A model generated the notes under the pieces. The model worked only from the letters and a program-made list of their open reading frames with translations. It did not search any database and was not told the DNA's origin. The position numbers and the translations under genes are program-made. DNA of 11,400 nucleotides, taken from a virus. Its lineage: Duplodnaviria; Heunggongvirae; Uroviricota; Caudoviricetes. Position 1 is the stretch's first letter. Each line of letters starts with the position of its first letter. Positions 1 through 10,140 of the stretch are shown here, in pieces. The stretch is taken from IMG/VR virus record IMGVR_UViG_2654587571_000016; one strand, written 5' to 3'.

Positions 1-696
1 GCCTTCATCAGTGGTAAGGCACCGGAAATCAAACCCTCGCCCGGCGGCAACACGCCATCGGGTCCGTCTGCAGATACGTCCGTTCGCACAATCTCCCTGC
101 TGCCGGCAGCCGGAGAGGCTGCTGCGCAGGGCTGGAGCATTAAGGATGGCGGAATTCAGTTGTCAGATGGTGTATTTAAGATCACCAAGCAGAGCAATAA
201 AACCTGGTCCCTGACGCATCCGGTGGATGACGCAATTACCCTGCTGACACAGGGCGGCAGACTGACCTGTAAGTTCCGCCTGTCAGGCGCACTGACCAAC
301 AATCAGTTCGGTCTGGGAATTTATCTGTATACCGATGTAGCGTTACCTGACGTCGTGGCGATGACCGGGACTGGTAACCCGTTCCTGATGTCGTTCTTCA
401 CCCAGACCACAGACGGCAAACTGAATCTGATGCATCACAAGAAAGCAGGAAACACAAAGTTGGGCGAGTTCGGGAATTACAGTAACGACTGGCAGACGCT
501 GGAGCTGGTGTTCACCGCCAGCAGTGCCACGGTTACTCCGAAACTGAATGGAGTGGCTGGCCCGGCATTCCAGGTCATAAAAGACAGTCTGACACTGGGG
601 CTGAATGCACTGACGCTGACGGATATTACCAAAAATGCAACGTATGGCGTTGAGATAGAAAGTCTGGTGCTGGAAATAAATAGTCCTGCAGCGTAA
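1..696 (+). CDS. Hypothetical protein, 5'-truncated by the window edge (at least 231 aa); predicted beta-rich, function unknown
   Basis: Frame 1 is open from base 1 to the TAA at 694-696 (the listed ORF 160..696 is its distal part); followed 24 nt later by the gpR-like gene with a GGAGA Shine-Dalgarno. I do not recognise the family. Confidence 0.55.
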   Translation, partial: AFISGKAPEIKPSPGGNTPSGPSADTSVRTISLLPAAGEAAAQGWSIKDGGIQLSDGVFKITKQSNKTWSLTHPVDDAITLLTQGGRLTCKFRLSGALTNNQFGLGIYLYTDVALPDVVAMTGTGNPFLMSFFTQTTDGKLNLMHHKKAGNTKLGEFGNYSNDWQTLELVFTASSATVTPKLNGVAGPAFQVIKDSLTLGLNALTLTDITKNATYGVEIESLVLEINSPAA

Positions 697-719
697 GGAA
701 GAACAGGAGAGCAAAACAG

Positions 720-1187
720 ATGCTTAAGACAAACAGCCTCCGGAAGGGCATGATTCATGGGTGTCGCTGGTGTCAGGCCAACCCGGAAAAATTCACCATT
801 TTCGTGGAGAGCGGCAACATTGAAACGACCGGAGAAACGCCCTCGTTTGTTTACCGCTATCAGATGGTGATGTTTGTCATGGATTACGCCGGGGAGCTGG
901 ACGACCTCACGCTGCCGCTACTGGCGTGGTTATCCGAAAATCAGCCGCAATTGTTGCTTAATCCGGAGCGTAATCAGGACATCAAATTCTCCGCCGTTAT
1001 CAATGACGATGACAGCGCCGATCTCCTGTTTACGCTCCCTCTGCGGGAACGCGTTCGCATCACGCGCAGCAGTCAGGGGGCACCGCAGGCAGAACACCTG
1101 CAGGAGCCAAAACCCCGTCTGCCATCTTCCGAAGGCGACTGGTCGCATGTATTCCAGGATGTGACGTGGGGTGAAAGCGATGGATAA
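720..1187 (+). CDS. P2 gpR-like tail completion protein (155 aa)
   Basis: ATG at 720 with GGAGA upstream; same length as P2 R (155 aa); sits immediately upstream of S, V, W, J, I, H, G homologs; stop overlaps the next start (ATGGATAA). Confidence 0.6.
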   Translation: MLKTNSLRKGMIHGCRWCQANPEKFTIFVESGNIETTGETPSFVYRYQMVMFVMDYAGELDDLTLPLLAWLSENQPQLLLNPERNQDIKFSAVINDDDSADLLFTLPLRERVRITRSSQGAPQAEHLQEPKPRLPSSEGDWSHVFQDVTWGESDG

Positions 1188-1815
1188 GGCATTCACCCGC
1201 GTGGATGAAACCTTTGAGGCTATCCGCGACAGCCTGAATCAGCAGGCCATCAATAACATCGCCAGAAAGCTGGCACAGGATTTACGCCGCGCCCAGCAGG
1301 CGCGTATCCGGTCACAGAAAGCGCCGGACGGGACCGCGTGGACACCACGCAGACGCCGCGCAACCCGGATACAGGAGCGCATTCGCTTTATCTGGAATAA
1401 CGAAGCACGCACGCTGAAAAACTGGCATCACGACACGGGGAAATACGGGCGAACCATTACCGGGTGGGATGAGGATAAAAACAATATCCGCACGTTTTAC
1501 CGGGATGACATCGACCGCTTTCTGGAAATACGCACCCGGCGCATCAACCAGGACAGCACAAAGCGCGTCCCCATGTTCGTAAAACTGCGCACCGCCCGCT
1601 ACCTGAAAGCCCGTGCAGATGCTTCCGGTGTGACGGTGGGTTACAGCGGCGTGGCCGCACGTATTGCCCGCGTTCATCAGTTCGGTGAGCGCGATCAGGT
1701 TGCGCCGGGCATTTTCACCGATTACCCGGTACGTGAGCTGTTGGGCATCAGTCAGGCAGATGAACGCCTGATTTATAACACGGTGCTGGGCCGGATTGCG
1801 GAGGCTGTACGGTGA
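1180..1815 (+). CDS. P2 gpS-like tail completion / virion morphogenesis protein
   Basis: ATG at 1180 overlaps the upstream stop (alternative GTG at 1171); its TGA overlaps the GTG start of the gpV homolog (GTGA); position and size fit the P2 S slot, though larger than P2 S. Confidence 0.55.
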   Translation: MDKAFTRVDETFEAIRDSLNQQAINNIARKLAQDLRRAQQARIRSQKAPDGTAWTPRRRRATRIQERIRFIWNNEARTLKNWHHDTGKYGRTITGWDEDKNNIRTFYRDDIDRFLEIRTRRINQDSTKRVPMFVKLRTARYLKARADASGVTVGYSGVAARIARVHQFGERDQVAPGIFTDYPVRELLGISQADERLIYNTVLGRIAEAVR

Positions 1816-2393
1816 GCGCAGAACTCATGCGACTGCTGAGCAACATCATCCGCACTGGGATCATCTCTGAAGTTGATGAGAAGTCCTGGTGCGTGCGCGT
1901 TCGCAGCGGCGAACTGGAAACAGGCTGGTTGCGCTGGAACACCACGCGCGCGGGAGCCTTCAATGTGTGGCTGCCGCCATCACCCGGCGAACAGGTGGTA
2001 ATTGCCTGCATTGGCGGCAACCCGGAAACCGCCATGATAATTGGCAGCCTGTGGAGTGATGCCAATCCGGCCCCCGGCAAAAGCCTGAAAGAAATCGTGG
2101 TCAGCGCGCCGGATGGCGCGGTGTTCCGCTACGACGCGGACGCAGGCGCACTGAGCGCCAGCGGCATGAAAACGGCCACCCTGCAGGCATCCGTCAGTGT
2201 GACACTGGACACGCCCGTCGTGGAATGCACAGACCTTCTGAGAACGGCGACGCTTGACGTCACAAAAGGGGGAAAGATGAGCGGCAATATCACGCACAGC
2301 GGCGGCAATTTCACCTCAAACGGCATCACAGTGCATACGCATAAACACGGTGGCGTTAAAGGTGGCAGCGATTCGACAGGAGGCCCGCAGTGA
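1812..2393 (+). CDS. Baseplate assembly protein V (P2 gpV-like spike/hub)
   Basis: 193 aa; N-terminal ...NIIRTGIISEVD... and the C-terminal ...VTKGGKMSGNITHSGGNFTSNGITVHTHKHGG... block match the gpV family as I recall it; GGAGG 8 nt upstream of GTG 1812; GTGA overlap with the W homolog. Confidence 0.85.
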   Translation: MSAELMRLLSNIIRTGIISEVDEKSWCVRVRSGELETGWLRWNTTRAGAFNVWLPPSPGEQVVIACIGGNPETAMIIGSLWSDANPAPGKSLKEIVVSAPDGAVFRYDADAGALSASGMKTATLQASVSVTLDTPVVECTDLLRTATLDVTKGGKMSGNITHSGGNFTSNGITVHTHKHGGVKGGSDSTGGPQ

Positions 2394-2740
2394 CAACCCG
2401 CTACACAGGAATGAACCCGGACGGAACGGGAAACCTGAACGATATGGAGCATCTGAAACAGTCAGTCAGGGACATCCTGACCACCCCGCTGGCAAGCCGG
2501 GTTATGCGACGGGAATATGGCAGCCTTGTGCCCGATTTAATTGACGAACCCATGAATAACACCACTCGTCTGCAATGCATGAGTGCTGCCGTGATTGCGC
2601 TGACACGATGGGAACCCCGCATTGCCCTGGACGCCATCGACGTTGTCTGGAAGGCAGGAGGCCGCGCCGGGGTGACGCTGTCGGGCACTGTCATGCAGAC
2701 CATGCAGAATGTTGAATTAACCATCACGCTGAGGGAGTAA
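2390..2740 (+). CDS. Baseplate wedge protein W (P2 gpW / T4 gp25-like)
   Basis: 116 aa, the size of P2 W (115 aa); AGGAGG 7 nt upstream of GTG 2390; gp25/GPW-like sequence; directly followed by the gpJ homolog. Confidence 0.8.
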   Translation: MTTRYTGMNPDGTGNLNDMEHLKQSVRDILTTPLASRVMRREYGSLVPDLIDEPMNNTTRLQCMSAAVIALTRWEPRIALDAIDVVWKAGGRAGVTLSGTVMQTMQNVELTITLRE

Positions 2741-2743
2741 ATC

Positions 2744-3640
2744 ATGCCTGCCGTTGACCTTTCCCAGTTACCGGAACCCGCCATCATCGCGGAGCCTGAC
2801 TTTGAGGCAATTCTGGCTGACACAAAGGCCATGATGATTGCGTCCTATCCTGCCGAACAGCGTGAAGCCGTCTCCGCCGCGCTGGAGCTGGAATCGGAAC
2901 CCCTGAACGTTATCGCCCAGACAACAGCGTTTCGTGAAATGCTGTTACGCCAGCGGGTCAATGAGGGGGCACGCGCCTGCATGTTAAGCCACAGCGCCGG
3001 GACAGACCTGGACAACCTCGCGGGCAATATGAACACAAAGCGCCTGACCATCACTCCGGCAACGGATACCACCGACGCAGTGATGGAAAGTGACACCTCG
3101 CTGAGACTGCGGGCGCAGCGGGCGTACGATGGCCTGAGTGTTGCTGGCCCGTCAGGTGCATACGAGTATTTTGCCCGCAGCGCCAGCGGTCTGGTGCGTG
3201 ATGCGCGGGCTATCAGTCCGTCTCCGGCAAATGTGACGGTTTCCATCCTGTCCACTGAAGGCGACGGCACAGCAACGGAGGCGTTGCTTAATACCGTTCG
3301 CGCCGTTCTGAATGCAGAGGATACCCGCCCGGTGGCCGACCGCCTGACGGTACAGAGCGCCAGAATCGTGACATGGCGGCTGAATGCAAAACTGTACTTT
3401 TACCCCGGCCCGGAATCCGAACCTATTCTGGCGGCGGCTGAATCGTCGTTCAGGAAGTGGCTGGCTGAGCAGGGGCTTATCGGTCAGGACGTGGCGTTGT
3501 CCGCCATTGCTGCCGCACTGCATGTGCACGGTGTGCAACGCGTGGAGATAATCGAACCCACACAGAATATGGCCATCAGCGACATACAGGCGGCGCGCTG
3601 TGAGTCGTTCACCATCAGCGAAGGTGGGCGCAATGAGTAA
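2744..3640 (+). CDS. Baseplate assembly protein J (P2 gpJ-like)
   Basis: 298 aa (P2 J is about 302 aa); ATG 2744 with GAGGGAG upstream; stop overlaps the gpI start (ATGAGTAA). Confidence 0.85.
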   Translation: MPAVDLSQLPEPAIIAEPDFEAILADTKAMMIASYPAEQREAVSAALELESEPLNVIAQTTAFREMLLRQRVNEGARACMLSHSAGTDLDNLAGNMNTKRLTITPATDTTDAVMESDTSLRLRAQRAYDGLSVAGPSGAYEYFARSASGLVRDARAISPSPANVTVSILSTEGDGTATEALLNTVRAVLNAEDTRPVADRLTVQSARIVTWRLNAKLYFYPGPESEPILAAAESSFRKWLAEQGLIGQDVALSAIAAALHVHGVQRVEIIEPTQNMAISDIQAARCESFTISEGGRNE

Positions 3641-4163
3641 TTCACTGTTACCACCATCAGCCAGCAGTTTCATGCGTTGTGCCGAAGCTGTCGGAACGCG
3701 CATTACAGACATCCCGGTAGACCTCAACACGCTGTGGTCGCCGGACACCTGCCCGGTGCACCTGCTGCCTTATCTCGCCTGGGCATTTTCCGTTGACCGC
3801 TGGGATCGCAACTGGCCGGAAGAGACAAAACGACAGGTGATTCGTGATGCATGGCTGATACACCGACACAAAGGGACCATCAGCGCACTGCGCAGGGCCA
3901 TTGAGCCGCTGGGATACCTCATTCGCGTGTCTGAGTGGTGGGAGTTCGGCGGAGAACCGGGAACATTTACCGTTGAAGTCGGCACACTGGACAGTGGCGT
4001 GACGGAGGAAATGTATCTGGAAATGGAGCGGTTGATTGCTGATGCCCGTCCGGTCAGCCGCCACATGACAGGGCTGAATATCATTCAGGAAATTCCGGGG
4101 GATATTTTTGCAGCGGCGGCAACTCATGACGGTGAAGTTATTACCATTTATCCGGACGATTAA
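3633..4163 (+). CDS. Tail/baseplate protein I (P2 gpI-like)
   Basis: 176 aa when started at ATG 3633 (the upstream in-frame ATG 3600 lies inside gpJ and is unlikely); AAGGTGG Shine-Dalgarno; same size as P2 I; stop 2 nt before the gpH start. Confidence 0.8.
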
Positions 4164-4165
4164 GC

Positions 4166-6298
4166 ATGAGTACCACAACACGAAAATTTAAAACCGTTAT
4201 CACCGATACAGGTGCCAAAAAATTAGCTCAGGCAGCCGCGCCAGATGGTAAGCCTGTCCGCCTGACTCATATGGCCGTGGGCGACGGTGGCGGCGCGTTG
4301 CCCACACCAGACAGTAAGCAGACCCGTCTGGTGCATGAGGTGTGGCGACACACTGTTAATCGCGTCATCCTGGACGCAACACATCAGAACCGCATTATTG
4401 CGGAGCTGGTTATTCCTCCAGAAACGGGCGGATTCTGGATCCGGGAAATTGGTGTTTTTGATGAGCACGGCGATTTAATCGCGGTGGGCAATACTGCCGA
4501 AAGTTACAAGCCAGCCGTTGCCGAAGGGTCCGGACGTGCACAAACATTTCGCACCATTCTGACCGTATCCAGCACTGCCACTGTGGCGCTTACCGTGGAT
4601 AACACCATGGTGATGGCCACAGTGGATTACGTGGATAACAAACTGAAAGAGCATGAACAGTCACGATGTCACCCGGATGCCTCGCTGACCGCAAAAGGCT
4701 TTGTTCAACTCAGTAGCGCCACTAACAGCGATTCTGAAACGCTGGCTGCAACGCCGAAAGCGGTTAAGGTCGCGTATGATCTTGCTAACGGAAAATATAC
4801 AGCGCAGGATGCCACAACAGCGCGAAAAGGCCTTGTCCAGCTTAGTAGTGCAACCAACAGTACATCTGAAACGCTGGCGGCAACATCAAATGCAGTAAAA
4901 GCTGCCTATGACAATGCTGAAAAACGTCTGCAGAAAGCTAAGAATGGTGAGGATATCTCTGATAAAGACACCTTTACGAAAAATATCGGTGCCTGCCGTG
5001 CATATAGTGCAGAGCTGAATATTGGTGGAGATAGTGAAGCATGGACAACTGCGCAGTTGATTTTTTGGCTAGAGAGTCAGGGGGCATTTAACCATCCTTA
5101 CTGGATGTGCAAAGGCTCATGGGCTTATGCAAATAATAAGGTCATTACAGATACAGGTTGCGGAAGTATTTGTCTTGCAGGTGCTGTTGTGGAAGTTATT
5201 GGCACCCGCGGCGCAATGACCATACGCATTACCACACCGAGTACATCCAGCGGTGAAGGCATCCCTAATGCTCAATTTACTTATATTAATCATGGTGATG
5301 CTTATGCTCCTGGCTGGCGAAGGGACTATAACTCCAGGAATAAGCCAACAGCATCAGAGATCGGGGCGTTACCGTCAGATGGGACAGCAGTATCGTCAGT
5401 TAATCTGGCTTCAAAAGGTCGGCTGACCGCCCTGACAGATAATATGCAGGGGGCCACAGGTCTGGAGTTATACGAGGCGTATAACAACGGATATCCAACA
5501 ACGTATGGAAATATCATTCACCTGAAAGGGATGACAGCCGTTGGCGAAGGCGAATTACTCATCGGCTGGAGTGGTATAAGCGGTGCTCATGCTCCGGCAT
5601 TTATTCGTTCACGACGGGATACGCCCGACGCAAACTGGTCGCCGTGGGCGCAGCTTTACACCTCGGCTCATCCTCCTGAAGAGTTTTATCCAGTCGGTGC
5701 ACCGATTCCGTGGCCATCAGATACCGTTCCGTCTGGTTATGCCCTGATGCAGGGGCAGACTTTTGACAAATCTGCATACCCGAAACTTGCAGTCGCTTAT
5801 CCGTCAGGCGTTATTCCTGATATGCGTGGCTGGACGATTAAGGGCAAGCCCGGCAGTGGTCGTGCCGTATTGTCTCAGGAACAGGACGGCATTAAATCGC
5901 ACACCCACAGCGCCAGCGCATCCAGTACGGATTTGGGGACGAAAACCACATCGTCGTTTGATTACGGTACTAAAACGACCAGTTCATTTGATTACGGCAC
6001 AAAAACTACGAATAGCGCTGGAAATCATTCACACAATATACCTGTTGGTCACACTGGCGCGGGGAATGGTGTATCAGCCGGTTATAACGCTGCGTTAGGT
6101 ACTGGTACCACGTCGAGCGCAGGCGAGCATGCTCACAATGTATATATCGGTGCCCATAACCACACTATCGGCATTGGTGCTCATGCCCATTCTGTCATTA
6201 TTGGTCCCCACGGACACACCATCACCGTTAACGCTACGGGTAACGAAGAAAACACCGTAAAAAACATCGCATTTAACTATATTGTGAGGCTTGCATAA
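4166..6298 (+). CDS. Tail fiber protein (P2 gpH-like N-terminus and repeat region, His-rich receptor-binding C-terminus)
   Basis: 710 aa; the N-terminus (..[45 protein letters not shown]..) and the duplicated ..[21 protein letters not shown].. block match P2 H as I recall it; C-terminus carries repeated HxH motifs (HSHN, EHAHN, AHNH, AHAHS, HGH). Confidence 0.9.
4694..4912 (+). repeat. Diverged internal direct duplication in the tail-fiber gene (two ~87-nt copies, 4694-4780 and 4826-4912)
   Basis: Protein repeats [29 protein letters not shown] / [29 protein letters not shown]; the DNA copies are clearly related but diverged. Confidence 0.7.
5936..6016 (+). repeat. 30-nt tandem repeat, about 2.7 copies, encoding [10 protein letters not shown] units within the tail-fiber gene
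   Basis: Read directly: gggacgaaaaccacatcgtcgtttgattac / ggtactaaaacgaccagttcatttgattac / ggcacaaaaactacgaatagc. Confidence 0.8.
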
Positions 6299-6876
6299 TG
6301 ACATTCAGAATGAGTGAACACTCACGGACCATAAAAATTTATAATCTACTGACCGGAACCAATGAGTTTATTGGTGAAGGTGATGCATACATTCCACCTC
6401 ATACAGGTCTGCCTGCAAACAGTACCGATATTGCCCCGCCAGATATTCCGGCTGGCTTCGTGGCCGTTTTCAACAGTGATGAGGCATCGTGGCATCTCGT
6501 TGAAGACCATCGGGGTAAAACGGTTTATGACGTGGCATCAGGGGACTCGTTATTTATTTCTGAACTCGGTCCATTACCGGAAAATGTTACCTGGTTGTCG
6601 CCGTATGGAGAGTATCAGAAGTGGAACGGCACATCCTGGGTGAAAGATGCAGAAGCAGAAAAACTGTTTCGGATAAGGGAGGCGGAAGAAACAAAAAACA
6701 GCCTGATGCAGGTAGCCAGCGAGCATATTGCGCCACTTCAGGATGCCGTAGATTTGGATATTGCAACGGAGGAAGAGGCATCGTTACTGGCTGCATGGAA
6801 GACATACCGGGTATTGTTGAATCGTGTTAATACAGCGGTAGCAGCGGATGTTGAGTGGCCAGTCGCCCCACAATAA
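6298..6876 (+). CDS. Tail fiber assembly chaperone (Tfa; P2 gpG / lambda Tfa family)
   Basis: 192 aa; C-terminal ..[39 protein letters not shown].. is the Tfa signature as I recall it; start overlaps the gpH stop (TAATG). Confidence 0.85.
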
Positions 6877-6882
6877 AGAGAA

Positions 6883-6912
6883 AAAGCCATCGATTGAAAT
6901 ATAGATGGCTTT
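6883..6912. terminator. Hairpin between convergent genes (possible bidirectional terminator, better for the minus-strand transcript)
   Basis: aaagccatc-N12-gatggcttt, 9-bp stem; on the minus strand it is followed by a TTTTTCTCT run; lies 7-8 nt from both stop codons. Confidence 0.3.
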
Positions 6913-6919
6913 ATGTACT

Positions 6920-7492
6920 CTATTTATACAATACAACACCGCTCTTTTTAGTTATATATGTGCAGTTCGATGGTATATCTTTATTTATAAAAGACATTGC
7001 ACCTATTTTTACATTATCCCCAATTTTACGTGATAATCCAATGATGCAACAATTAGCTCCGATATCAACGTTACTACCAATTTTTACTCTTGAACCAGGC
7101 ATGTCACCATCTATCTGTCCAATGGTAGTATTCTGTCGTAACACCAGATTTTCACCAGCATCAACAGCAAAATGAACAACAATTCCAGCATGATGGGGAA
7201 TTGTTAACCCTTTTCCAATATTTGCGCCCAATCCAATTTCACAACCAAATTTGTTAATTATTTTACTGTTTAACTTTTTGGCTGCTTTCTTATGTAATTT
7301 ATTACCATTAATATACATTTCGTTAGCCAACCGCCACCAGAAAAGGAAATTCCGGTTACGCTGTTTTTTCTCTCTTAAAAGCCTCCAGATATCCATACGT
7401 TTCCGCCGAATTACTTCATATTTCCAGAAGTTTTTTAAATTAGTAGAGTCCCCAAATAAAACAAAGTGAATTGCCATTAAGTAAGACAGCAC
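6920..7492 (-). CDS. Hexapeptide-repeat acetyltransferase (WcaB/CysE/WbbJ-like left-handed beta-helix O-acetyltransferase); low-GC cargo gene
   Basis: Hexapeptide signature ..GCEIGLGANIGKGLTIPHHAGIVVHFAVDAGENLVLRQNTTIG..IGSNVDIGANCCIIG..; by inspection much lower GC than the flanking tail genes. Start uncertain: GTG 7492 has GGAGA 5 nt upstream; alternatives are ATG 7477 and the longest-ORF GTG 7525. Confidence 0.75.
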   Translation of the reverse strand: MLSYLMAIHFVLFGDSTNLKNFWKYEVIRRKRMDIWRLLREKKQRNRNFLFWWRLANEMYINGNKLHKKAAKKLNSKIINKFGCEIGLGANIGKGLTIPHHAGIVVHFAVDAGENLVLRQNTTIGQIDGDMPGSRVKIGSNVDIGANCCIIGLSRKIGDNVKIGAMSFINKDIPSNCTYITKKSGVVLYK

Positions 7493-7648
7493 GATAATCT
7501 CCTTAATTATTATTTCAGACCACACATATTATAAGGTTAAGAGATTATAAAATCCTGTTGTTTGTTATTCAAAAACAATTTTCTGAGAAGGACATACAAC
7601 AGCAAGTCGCCAGTCACCTTCATCAGGAAATTGGCGACATACGTTAAA

Positions 7649-8143
7649 TCAGAGCAGCCCCTTAACTGAGCTGGTCGCGCTATTAAGGGATGATGTCACC
7701 TTATCTTTGAAGCCGGACAACATATCGCTGAACGATGAGGATTGCAGGCGCTCCCGCAAATCCTCATCACAGCGTTCAAGAGTCAGTGAAAATTCTATCT
7801 TTTTCGCCTTACCGTAGCGATCAAACTCGGAGCGGGTCGTATTCGTTTCGGTCAGGACATACATGCCGTAAATCTGCCCGACGCCATCAATCAGAGGCCA
7901 GGGCCGTCCTGTATACGCCTGCGTGGTCAGCAGAGACAGCGACACTTCGCCACCTGTAATTTCAGGATAAAGCACACCAGAAAGAACGATGCGATCATCA
8001 CCTGCACCGATATACTGCCAGCTTGCTGAACGGTTAACGCGTTCATTTTTCACATGCCGCCAGCTTTTGTTTTGCTGTAACTGCTGATGCGGCAGCGTGC
8101 GCAGCTCAAAAACAAACATGCCATAGATCATCATCATGGCCAT
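7649..8143 (-). CDS. P2 gpU-like tail protein, orphan and in inverted orientation relative to the tail operon
   Basis: 164 aa; N-terminal MMMIYGMFVFELRTLP..WRH...RVNR and ..WPLIDGVGQIYGMYVLTE..IEFSLTLER resemble the gpU family from memory; normal GC, flanked by low-GC DNA. Confidence 0.6.
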   Translation of the reverse strand: MAMMMIYGMFVFELRTLPHQQLQQNKSWRHVKNERVNRSASWQYIGAGDDRIVLSGVLYPEITGGEVSLSLLTTQAYTGRPWPLIDGVGQIYGMYVLTETNTTRSEFDRYGKAKKIEFSLTLERCDEDLRERLQSSSFSDMLSGFKDKVTSSLNSATSSVKGLL

Positions 8144-8205
8144 GACTCCTCAATCTTTATCGTAAAAGTTTCAATGCTTTTTCCTGCGGAGGTAAGGGAT
8201 ATGTA

Positions 8206-8797: not shown

Positions 8798-9058
8798 ATG
8801 TTCCGTTGTCCGCTTTGTGGCGCATCTGCCCGAATCCGCACCAGTCGTCCGGAAAACGATTCAAACACTGTGCGGCAAAAGTATTACCAGTGTAACAACC
8901 TGGAATGCGGCGTATGCTTCTCAACACTGGAAGCTTTCCATAAATTCACATCAAAACACGCCTCCGGCGTTCACTCTTCGGAAGGTATCCCGTGGCATGA
9001 GCTGCCAGCTTCACACAGGGGAAACAATCAGATGAGTTTGCCTTTACCTCAGAATTAA
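8798..9058 (+). CDS. ogr: Ogr/Delta-family zinc-finger late transcription activator (P2 Ogr-like, with C-terminal extension)
   Basis: MFRCPLCGASARIRTSR...YYQCNNLEC: the CxxC...CxxxxC zinc-finger layout and MF.CPLC start of Ogr/Delta; strong Shine-Dalgarno (AAGGGAGG); 86 aa against about 72 aa for P2 Ogr. Confidence 0.8.
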   Translation: MFRCPLCGASARIRTSRPENDSNTVRQKYYQCNNLECGVCFSTLEAFHKFTSKHASGVHSSEGIPWHELPASHRGNNQMSLPLPQN

Positions 9059-9248: not shown

Positions 9249-9389
9249 ATGTCGCAAAAATCGCTTACAGCCATCACGTTCTGCGTGACGGTAATCCTCA
9301 TCATCTGGATGCTACACGGTTCGCTGTGTGAAATACGGATGAGCTTCTGGGGAGCGGAGTTTGCGGCGTTCTTACAGTGTAAGCAGTAA
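9249..9389 (+). CDS. hok: Hok/Gef-family type I toxin (46 aa membrane peptide)
   Basis: MSQKSLTAITFCVTVILIIWMLHGSLCEIRMSFWGAEFAAFLQCKQ: hydrophobic N-terminal helix followed by the conserved SLCEIR...AAF(L/M) motif shared with HokA/HokC as I recall them; AAAGGAG Shine-Dalgarno 8 nt upstream; missed by the 60-aa ORF track. Confidence 0.8.
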   Translation: MSQKSLTAITFCVTVILIIWMLHGSLCEIRMSFWGAEFAAFLQCKQ

Positions 9390-9577: not shown

Positions 9578-9859
9578 TTACTCAGCATTCTCCTGCTTCC
9601 ATTGCCGGATCATTTCATCGGTAACATCACCCTCATAACATACCACGTCATACCCTCCATTACGGCTATATGCACTGCGTCCACCACATCTACTACCATT
9701 CCTTGCATGATTATAAGGACACGCACAATTGCCTGGATAAGATTCAATGGATTCTTTAATTATTTCTTTTTTGATCTGAGCATCAGACTTTCCTGTTGCT
9801 GCATATCCACTAAAAGATACTAAACAAAGGCAGATTGCCATTAATAAACCACATCGCAT
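9578..9859 (-). CDS. Small secreted cysteine-rich protein of unknown function (about 93 aa, predicted signal peptide)
   Basis: Taking ATG 9859 gives MRCGLLMAICLCLVSFSGYA|ATG..., a signal-peptide-like N-terminus; mature part holds 5 Cys (..PGNCACPYNHARNGSRCGGRSAYSRNGGYDVVCYEGD..). The longest ORF runs to 9973 (TTG/ATG) but that extension is non-hydrophobic and lacks a Shine-Dalgarno. Confidence 0.5.
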   Translation of the reverse strand: MRCGLLMAICLCLVSFSGYAATGKSDAQIKKEIIKESIESYPGNCACPYNHARNGSRCGGRSAYSRNGGYDVVCYEGDVTDEMIRQWKQENAE

Positions 9860-10140
9860 ACCGATACACTCTATTACTAACCAATCATAGCCCACATCAT
9901 AAAATCGAGATGAGGAGTACAATACCTTTAACAAGAAGGTGTCATAACGATAATATGTCGTGCAATTCATCAAAAAAAAGATCTATATCAAAGAGATAGA
10001 ACTCTTATCAGTGCTTCAGACATCGGCATTCGAGGCAGCAGAAAAACAGTAAATCTGACGAATTTGCCTTTTCCCAAGATGTTGTCAGATTAAAAAGATA
10101 GATTAGCGCAGGTACCTGTTGGTGGATTGCAGGAGGAAAA

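Follow-up and report, generated by a model that had tools for sequence, protein, structure and literature searches.

The window analyzed here is the whole 11,400-nucleotide (nt) stretch of IMG/VR record IMGVR_UViG_2654587571_000016, a Caudoviricetes sequence. It is Escherichia coli DNA: positions 1-8167 and 8168 to the end each match Shiga-toxin-producing strains of O103, O111 and O26 at 100% identity. The window covers the late and tail region of a P2-like prophage, next to pgsA and tRNA genes for Leu, Cys and Gly. Its genes follow the P2-type order R-S-V-W-J-I-H-G (Table 1). The gene in the H position encodes a tail fiber of 710 amino acids (aa), and tfa, in the G position, encodes the fiber chaperone. 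The fiber protein is identical to RefSeq WP_000108516.1, which is annotated 'phage tail protein' in O103 RM8385; NCBIfam offers no named family for the fiber or for Tfa. Judged by its homologies, this region serves a P2-like (Xuanwuvirus-type) prophage of E. coli as its host-range module. We consider it very probable that the fiber carries a tip of the gp37/Stf type with HxH (His-any residue-His) motifs, is served by a lambda-type Tfa, and was acquired by recombination in place of an invertible cassette.

The first-pass annotation had described the fiber as a two-part mosaic, a P2 gpH-like N-terminus joined to a histidine-rich tip. The mosaic and the P2 gpH-like nature of the N-terminus were both borne out, but the protein consists of at least four modules rather than two: the gpH-type N-terminus, fiber-repeat linkers, a shaft resembling Mu S' and P1 S, and the gp37/Stf tip. 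Identity is 54% to a P2 H protein over residues 33-275 and 94% to the fiber of Xuanwuvirus phage 520873 over residues 1-254. By family assignment the N-terminal domain is the part that attaches to the baseplate. The two Phage_fiber_2 repeats that follow are visible in the DNA as 94-nt direct repeats (4693-4786 and 4825-4918), and the same motif is common to P2 H, lambda Stf (orf-401), P1/Mu S and the fibers of Shiga toxin phages. The shaft/knob is a close match to the variable region of Mu S' (8ju3 residues 177-333; domain score 276 bits in a PDB sequence search) and is 81% identical in amino acids to Yersinia phage vB_YpM_39. P7 S matches fiber residues 171-500 at 71% aa identity. The next shaft segment is common to P1/P7 S proteins and lambdoid side fibers, and it found no solved homologue in the PDB sequence search.

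The tip contains six HxH motifs, at aa 579 (HTH), 621 (HSH), 655 (HAH), 664 (HNH), 673 (HAH) and 682 (HGH), corresponding to nt 5900, 6026, 6128, 6155, 6182 and 6209. They had been placed in the C-terminal 90 or so residues. Five do lie there, within 6010-6298; the aa 579 motif lies upstream of 6010, and the homologous tip is longer, about 204 aa beginning at nt 5684. As anticipated, the segment aligns to known fiber tips. The PDB sequence search matched aa 507-710 to the T4 gp37 tip structure 2xgf (chain residues 28-242) with an E value of 7e-78; identity by blastp is 66%, and the two share an identical 11-residue C-terminal string. Residues 508-710 are 65% identical to lambda orf-314. A collar domain precedes the needle (Pfam PF07484, 3.1e-11, aa 511-558). 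The motifs had also been expected to be conserved among homologues. All 12 HxH histidines are invariant or nearly so, being present in 122-123 of 123 sequences; this set was built from the best 120 of 1,330 database homologues together with T4 gp37 and lambda Stf.

For the gp37 tip, published work supplied the domain boundaries and the positions of the irons (PMC6957217; PMC11705849). T4 gp37 holds seven irons by HxH histidines, and these are essential, H929 and H931 included, along with eight surface residues of the tip (PMC6957217; PMC11705849). The window tip was compared with gp37 part by part. Identity is 87% in the collar (gp37 811-881), 16/17 in the C-terminal collar strand (1010-1026), 64-67% in the needle arms (882-928 and 969-1009) and 38% in the head (929-968). 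The six window motifs map one to one onto gp37 H883, H929, H966, H980, H989 and H998. We infer that the needle is one metal layer shorter than that of T4, with six predicted metal sites, and that its receptor surface is unlike T4's. OmpC is the receptor of both lambda Stf and T4 gp37 (PMC12617516). Because the head has diverged so far from T4, a receptor could not be assigned from homology, and such an assignment was rejected. Our best guess, by analogy with T4 and lambda, is an outer-membrane porin and/or lipopolysaccharide (LPS).

The fiber stop codon and the tfa start codon overlap as TAATG at 6296-6300, with tfa beginning on the last base of the stop codon. This arrangement indicates that tfa is translationally coupled to the fiber gene. 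The downstream gene had been read as a lambda/T4-style chaperone, correctly so. Tfa is 88% identical to lambda Tfa over its full length and 28.6% identical to T4 gp38 over 95% of its length (E value 5e-18). It matches Pfam PF02413 (Caudo_TAP, 1.2e-39, aa 72-192) and phrog_105, 'tail fiber assembly' (1.5e-95). Full-length matches were found only with lambda Tfa and T4 gp38; P2 G, P1 U and Mu U match only aa ~120-192, with Mu U (5yvq_B) covering aa 127-191. In a modular model of Tfa, a variable N-terminal domain binds the cognate fiber and a conserved C-terminal helical domain trimerizes (PMC9608196, summarizing North et al. 2019). The domain pattern of the window Tfa fits this model.

A further feature of tfa is a full-length match to Rfam RF02111 ('IS009') at 6641-6839 on the plus strand, inside the conserved C-terminal half of the gene (192 bits against a gathering score of 117). 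Relative to lambda tfa, 19 of the 32 differences in this stretch fall at third codon positions. An embedded small RNA was rejected, as this bias explains the conservation by coding. The Rfam family may be no more than a profile of conserved tfa coding sequence.

Comparison with related phages located DNA breakpoints by blastn at 4918, ~5687 and 7643. Homology to the backbone of 520873 stops at 4918, the end of the fiber repeats, and picks up again at 7643. Between these points the window resembles other phages in turn. Lambdoid Stf and tfa sequences of PhiR26_1 align on either side of the tip head, and the continuous match to the P1-like phage vB_EcoM-Ro157c2YLVW extends from the tip through tfa into the acetyltransferase gene (aa identities of 91%, 95% and 90.5%, respectively). 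The same block of tip, tfa and acetyltransferase is found on the P1-like plasmid pO26_10153_1 of an O26 strain. G+C content is ~0.58-0.60 across the baseplate genes, drops to 0.45-0.52 over the distal fiber and tfa, and reaches 0.32-0.38 in the acetyltransferase. The sharp identity breakpoints against three phage types, together with this drop, show the horizontal exchange that had been suspected from the letters alone. On the same grounds the exchanged unit also takes in the reverse-strand acetyltransferase.

The exact fiber protein occurs in 601 indexed blocks of a public assembly collection, and 8/8 contexts shown have the full tail module. Among 5,426 complete E. coli genomes, 265 have the tip-tfa-acetyltransferase block at a coverage of at least 80%, and 4,441 have partial tip/tfa homologues, some of them annotated stfR/tfaR or tfaQ; the number of tip/tfa homologues per genome has a median of 2 and a maximum of 7.

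The first-pass annotation had stated that no invertase or invertible segment accompanies the fiber, and searches of the window agree. No gix site was matched in the window with up to 3 mismatches, and no AAACCNNGGTTT core was matched with up to 2 mismatches, where 5 would be expected by chance. The window has no inverted repeat longer than 21 nt, and no resolvase-family open reading frame (ORF) was found among its candidate genes scanned against Pfam. An inverted second set of fiber C-terminus and chaperone (Sv'/Tfa') is absent; only the acetyltransferase and gpU, both on the minus strand, lie 3' of tfa. The stretch 4970-4993, equivalent to the position of gix in Mu (FIQNLGLQE), was considered as a gix relic and rejected, as its sequence does not resemble gix.

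Phage 520873 provided a positive control for the site search. In the same slot (L005 4001-8658) it has a fiber gene, tfa, an inverted Tfa', an inverted alternative fiber end (Sv') and a serine invertase. The invertase (L005 8041-8658) matches Pfam Resolvase at 4e-50 in a record that carries no annotation, and gix-like inverted repeats, TTATCGAATACCTCGGTTTACGAGAA and TTCCTGCAAACCGAGGTTTTAAATAA, lie at L005 5258-5290 and 7979-8011. The absence of an invertase from the window is informative, since the closest backbone relative has one in the same slot. Because the window lacks a switch where 520873 has one, its lineage carries a fixed cassette in place of a switchable one. The P1-like elements Ro157c2YLVW (L007 760-5528) and pO26_10153_1 (L018) have S, tfa and the opposite-strand acetyltransferase, followed by a truncated U' remnant, and there is neither cin nor Sv' in the annotated fiber stretch of either. 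This suggests that the P1 C-segment switch was lost when the tip-tfa-acetyltransferase cassette came in.

Together these observations suggest how the fiber would be built and how it arose. The fiber would be a homotrimer attached to the baseplate by its P2 gpH-type N-terminus. Its last ~204 residues would form a collar-needle-head tip in which each chain descends to the head and then returns. Stacked HxH motifs of the three chains would bind metal ions along the needle axis (Fe2+ in T4), at six sites compared with seven in T4, and the head would contact the receptor. The coupled Tfa would fold and trimerize the tip, its class-specific N-domain binding the fiber and its conserved C-terminal helices trimerizing. 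The distal fiber, tfa and acetyltransferase were presumably acquired by recombination at conserved fiber-repeat sequences, and the acquired block would have replaced an invertible fiber cassette together with its invertase.

The prophage itself is incomplete. Relative to O103 RM8385, the window has a 7.5-kb deletion with its junction at 8167/8168. The missing DNA includes the tape-measure gene T (all but the last 17 nt), E', E, FII and FI (tube and sheath), D, and the 5' part of a YecA-family gene. The junction has no microhomology. It was seen in 0 of 5,426 complete E. coli genomes and in 0 of the 8 contexts shown, so that it represents either a deletion that is natural but rare or an error of joining in the source. 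Decay has taken another course in the O157:H7 strain 6535WT, whose copy has an IS3-family element at the position of the fiber, a tfa cut to 531 nt, the same acetyltransferase, and a frameshifted T.

Several points weigh against the proposed structure and use of the fiber. The HxH layer formed by gp37 H915/H917 has no counterpart in the window, so that 6/7 layers are kept. The head is only 38% identical to that of T4, and although 6/10 T4 residues critical for receptor binding are retained, the other 4/10 are changed. An AlphaFold2 prediction of aa 500-710 from a 31-sequence alignment scored too poorly to be used (predicted local distance difference test score 48.9; predicted template modeling score 0.19); the run was made on a monomer, in which an intertwined, metal-stapled trimer is not modellable. 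Finally, a prophage without tape-measure, gpE/E', tube, sheath and D probably cannot build tails or deploy the cassette alone. This last point raises the question of whether the cassette here is a non-functional remnant whose ORFs have escaped decay only through the recency of the deletion, and which serves at most as a recombination reservoir for co-resident prophages. The two parts of the window lie 7.5 kb apart in O103 RM8385 with tail genes between them, O157:H7 holds a differently decayed copy, and the tip/tfa homologues of E. coli genomes (median 2, up to 7) are potential recombination partners. Against this, the fiber and tfa ORFs are intact and identical to those of prophages with the full tail module, and the absence of the deletion from every genome and context examined leaves room for an artefact of the source assembly. 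We regard a remnant as quite possible, if somewhat short of probable, and it bears on the current use of the module, not on its identity.

Whether Tfa leaves the fiber after assembly was also considered. Reports place the chaperones of Ur-lambda and Mu, but not T4 gp38, in mature virions (PMC9608196), and by that precedent the window Tfa, so close to lambda Tfa, might stay bound to the tip and add to receptor recognition. Tfa is ~88-89% conserved even where the fiber head fully diverges, and for this reason its contacts are probably with surfaces of the needle or collar that are themselves conserved. Among solved tips the closest in structure is, however, that of T4, and its chaperone, gp38, is not in virions according to the same text. 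Retention of Tfa on the tip is rather unlikely, though worth keeping in view. Much less can be said for the remaining alternatives. The fiber could be half of a Gin/Cin/Pin-type host-range switch whose remainder was overlooked, as its middle resembles Mu S' and the P1/P7 S proteins of invertible segments and its nearest backbone relative has such a switch. With the window free of crossover sites, long inverted repeats, a resolvase-family ORF and Sv'/Tfa', and with the acetyltransferase and gpU filling the downstream space, this is very improbable. The only point in favor of the HxH cluster being a compositional accident of a low-complexity tail, with no structural role, is that His, Gly, Thr and Ser are locally abundant. 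In composition-preserving shuffles of the last 95 residues, which contain 11 His, five HxH motifs were reached in 163 of 100,000. All twelve histidines are conserved in the 123 sequences, T4 and lambda included, and they map onto the iron-binding histidines of the gp37 crystal structure 2xgf. Clearly, an accident is scarcely credible. A P2-like prophage fiber with an acquired gp37/Stf tip and lambda-type Tfa remains the reading we prefer.

The acetyltransferase accompanies the tip and tfa in their transfer between P2-like prophages on one side and P1-like phages and plasmids on the other. It resembles EpsC, CysE and WcaB while staying under every NCBIfam cut-off, and falls into phrog_2154 (unknown function). 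A promoter scan gave it a promoter-like site of its own (7572-7544). Several P2-like phages have more distant homologues (35-44%); the match in vB_EcoM-613R2 overlaps a tfa annotation. The enzyme might be functionally tied to the fiber, acetylating a surface polysaccharide or LPS that the tip recognizes or that masks its receptor, and so shielding lysogens from adsorption by phages with the same tip. We consider this improbable. If true, acetyltransferase and tip would form a linked 'key plus lock-changer', and not a fiber cassette with a random passenger gene.

Other genes of the window are listed with the features discussed above in Table 1. The gene at 160-696 has DUF1737, SASA (sialate O-acetylesterase-like) and DUF6645 domains, and judged by these it is carbohydrate O-acetylesterase-like. 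Only some copies of the prophage have this 625-aa SASA gene, which in them is inserted between lysis genes and gpR. Between ogr and the tRNA genes, the RM8385 annotation has a Hok/Gef-family small toxin gene of 46 aa (9249-9389, plus strand); no Sok RNA reached the Rfam gathering score within the window. An ORF on the minus strand (9578-9973) has a low G+C content (~37%), and its C-terminal part is a 93-aa RefSeq hypothetical protein. Its product is rich in cysteine and hydrophobic near the N-terminus, and it matched no family of either Pfam or NCBIfam.

Table 1. Genes, fiber and Tfa domains, and regions of DNA identity in the 11,400-nt window.
Feature	Positions	Strand	Basis or remark
DUF6645 gene, 3' end	160-696	+	Off left edge of window; whole gene 625 aa
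gpR	720-1187	+	ORF list/Pfam
gpS	1171-1815	+	ORF list/Pfam
gpV	1812-2393	+	ORF list/Pfam
gpW	2390-2740	+	ORF list/Pfam
gpJ	2744-3640	+	Pfam Baseplate_J, upstream of fiber
gpI	3600-4163	+	Pfam Tail_P2_I, upstream of fiber
Tail fiber gene (gpH equivalent), 710 aa	4166-6298	+	Pfam Phage_tail_fib, Phage_fiber_2, Collar
Module: P2 gpH-type N-terminal domain, aa 6-153	4181-4624	+	Pfam PF12571 (Phage_tail_fib), 6.9e-54
Module: two Phage_fiber_2 repeats, aa 173-251	4682-4918	+	Pfam PF03406, 2.7e-39
Module: shaft/knob, aa 249-408	4910-5389	+	PDB sequence search, 8ju3
Module: shaft segment, aa 409-506	5390-5683	+	tblastn: P7, Vibrio phages, P1-like Ro157c2YLVW
Module: gp37/Stf-type receptor-binding tip, aa 507-710	5684-6298	+	2xgf match; Pfam Collar
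Tip collar, aa 508-577 and 694-710			
Tip needle, aa 578-693			
Tip head, aa 621-657	6026-6136		
tfa, 192 aa	6298-6876	+	ORF list; Pfam Caudo_TAP
Tfa N-terminal ~119 aa	6298-6654	+	Specific to lambda Tfa/T4 gp38 class
Tfa C-terminal ~73 aa	6655-6873	+	Generic Tfa helical domain
Hexapeptide-repeat acetyltransferase	6920-7525	-	Pfam Hexapep; RefSeq start 7492 (190 aa)
gpU	7649-8143	-	ORF list/Pfam
ogr/delta gene	8798-9058	+	ORF list/Pfam
Identity to Xuanwuvirus phage 520873	3001-4918		96% nt identity
Identity to lambdoid Stf (PhiR26_1)	4703-5974		86% nt identity
Identity to P1-like phage vB_EcoM-Ro157c2YLVW	5687-7484		94.8% nt identity, continuous
Identity to lambdoid Stf/tfa (PhiR26_1)	6161-6860		88% nt identity
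Segment differing from closest backbone relative 520873	4919-7642		blastn breakpoints

These findings matter little beyond correct annotation. The module would be the determinant of adsorption specificity in a P2-like prophage that is common among O26, O103 and O111 Shiga-toxin-producing E. coli. It is also a clean natural case of fiber modules moving between P2-like, P1-like and lambdoid phages, with a fixed cassette in place of an invertible one. Chimeric fibers have already been made (lambda-P2 and P2-S16), and the junctions at aa ~251 and ~507, together with the paired Tfa, could guide the design of others for retargeting phages or particles.

Comparison with known systems places each part of the module. 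The window shares with P2 the N-terminal Pfam domain of gpH, the J-I-H-G order and a moron slot after G, and the C-terminus of its Tfa is 47% identical to that of P2 G. It departs from P2 beyond fiber aa ~276, where similarity to the one P2 H protein compared is no longer detectable, and in the N-terminal ~119 residues of Tfa, which have no similarity to G. The tail genes FI-U also lie on the opposite strand in the window's prophage family. Parts of the fiber are like those of Mu (G segment, S/S'/U/U', Gin), P1/P7 (C segment, Cin) and 520873, whereas the window lacks their invertase, crossover sites and inverted alternative genes. The backbone of 520873 is 96% identical up to fiber aa 251. The P1-like phages vB_EcoM-Ro157c2YLVW and JL22 and plasmid pO26_10153_1 have the same block of tip, tfa and acetyltransferase on an entirely different backbone (a P1-type plasmid prophage) and behind an entirely different proximal fiber.

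The tip itself belongs with those of T4 and lambda. It aligns with gp37 end to end, keeps six of the seven HxH iron sites and nearly all of the last 17 residues, and is served by a homologue of gp38. Its needle is ~4-5 residues shorter per strand, the rest of the fiber is unrelated to gp37, and the chaperone resembles lambda Tfa far more than gp38. With lambda it shares the TAATG-type overlap (orf-314 ends and orf-194 starts at 21973), a tip with 65% protein identity and 84-89% DNA identity outside the head, and a duplicated FDYGTK repeat. Lambda Stf differs in having eight HxH motifs, a head insertion ~75 residues longer, and an N-terminus that attaches to a siphovirus tail where the window has the P2 gpH type; DNA homology between the two is lost across the head, at 6035-6173. 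The module is thus of a known kind: gp37/Stf/Tfa homology, HxH iron sites, and the exchange of fibers among P2, P1, Mu, lambda and T-even phages have long been documented.

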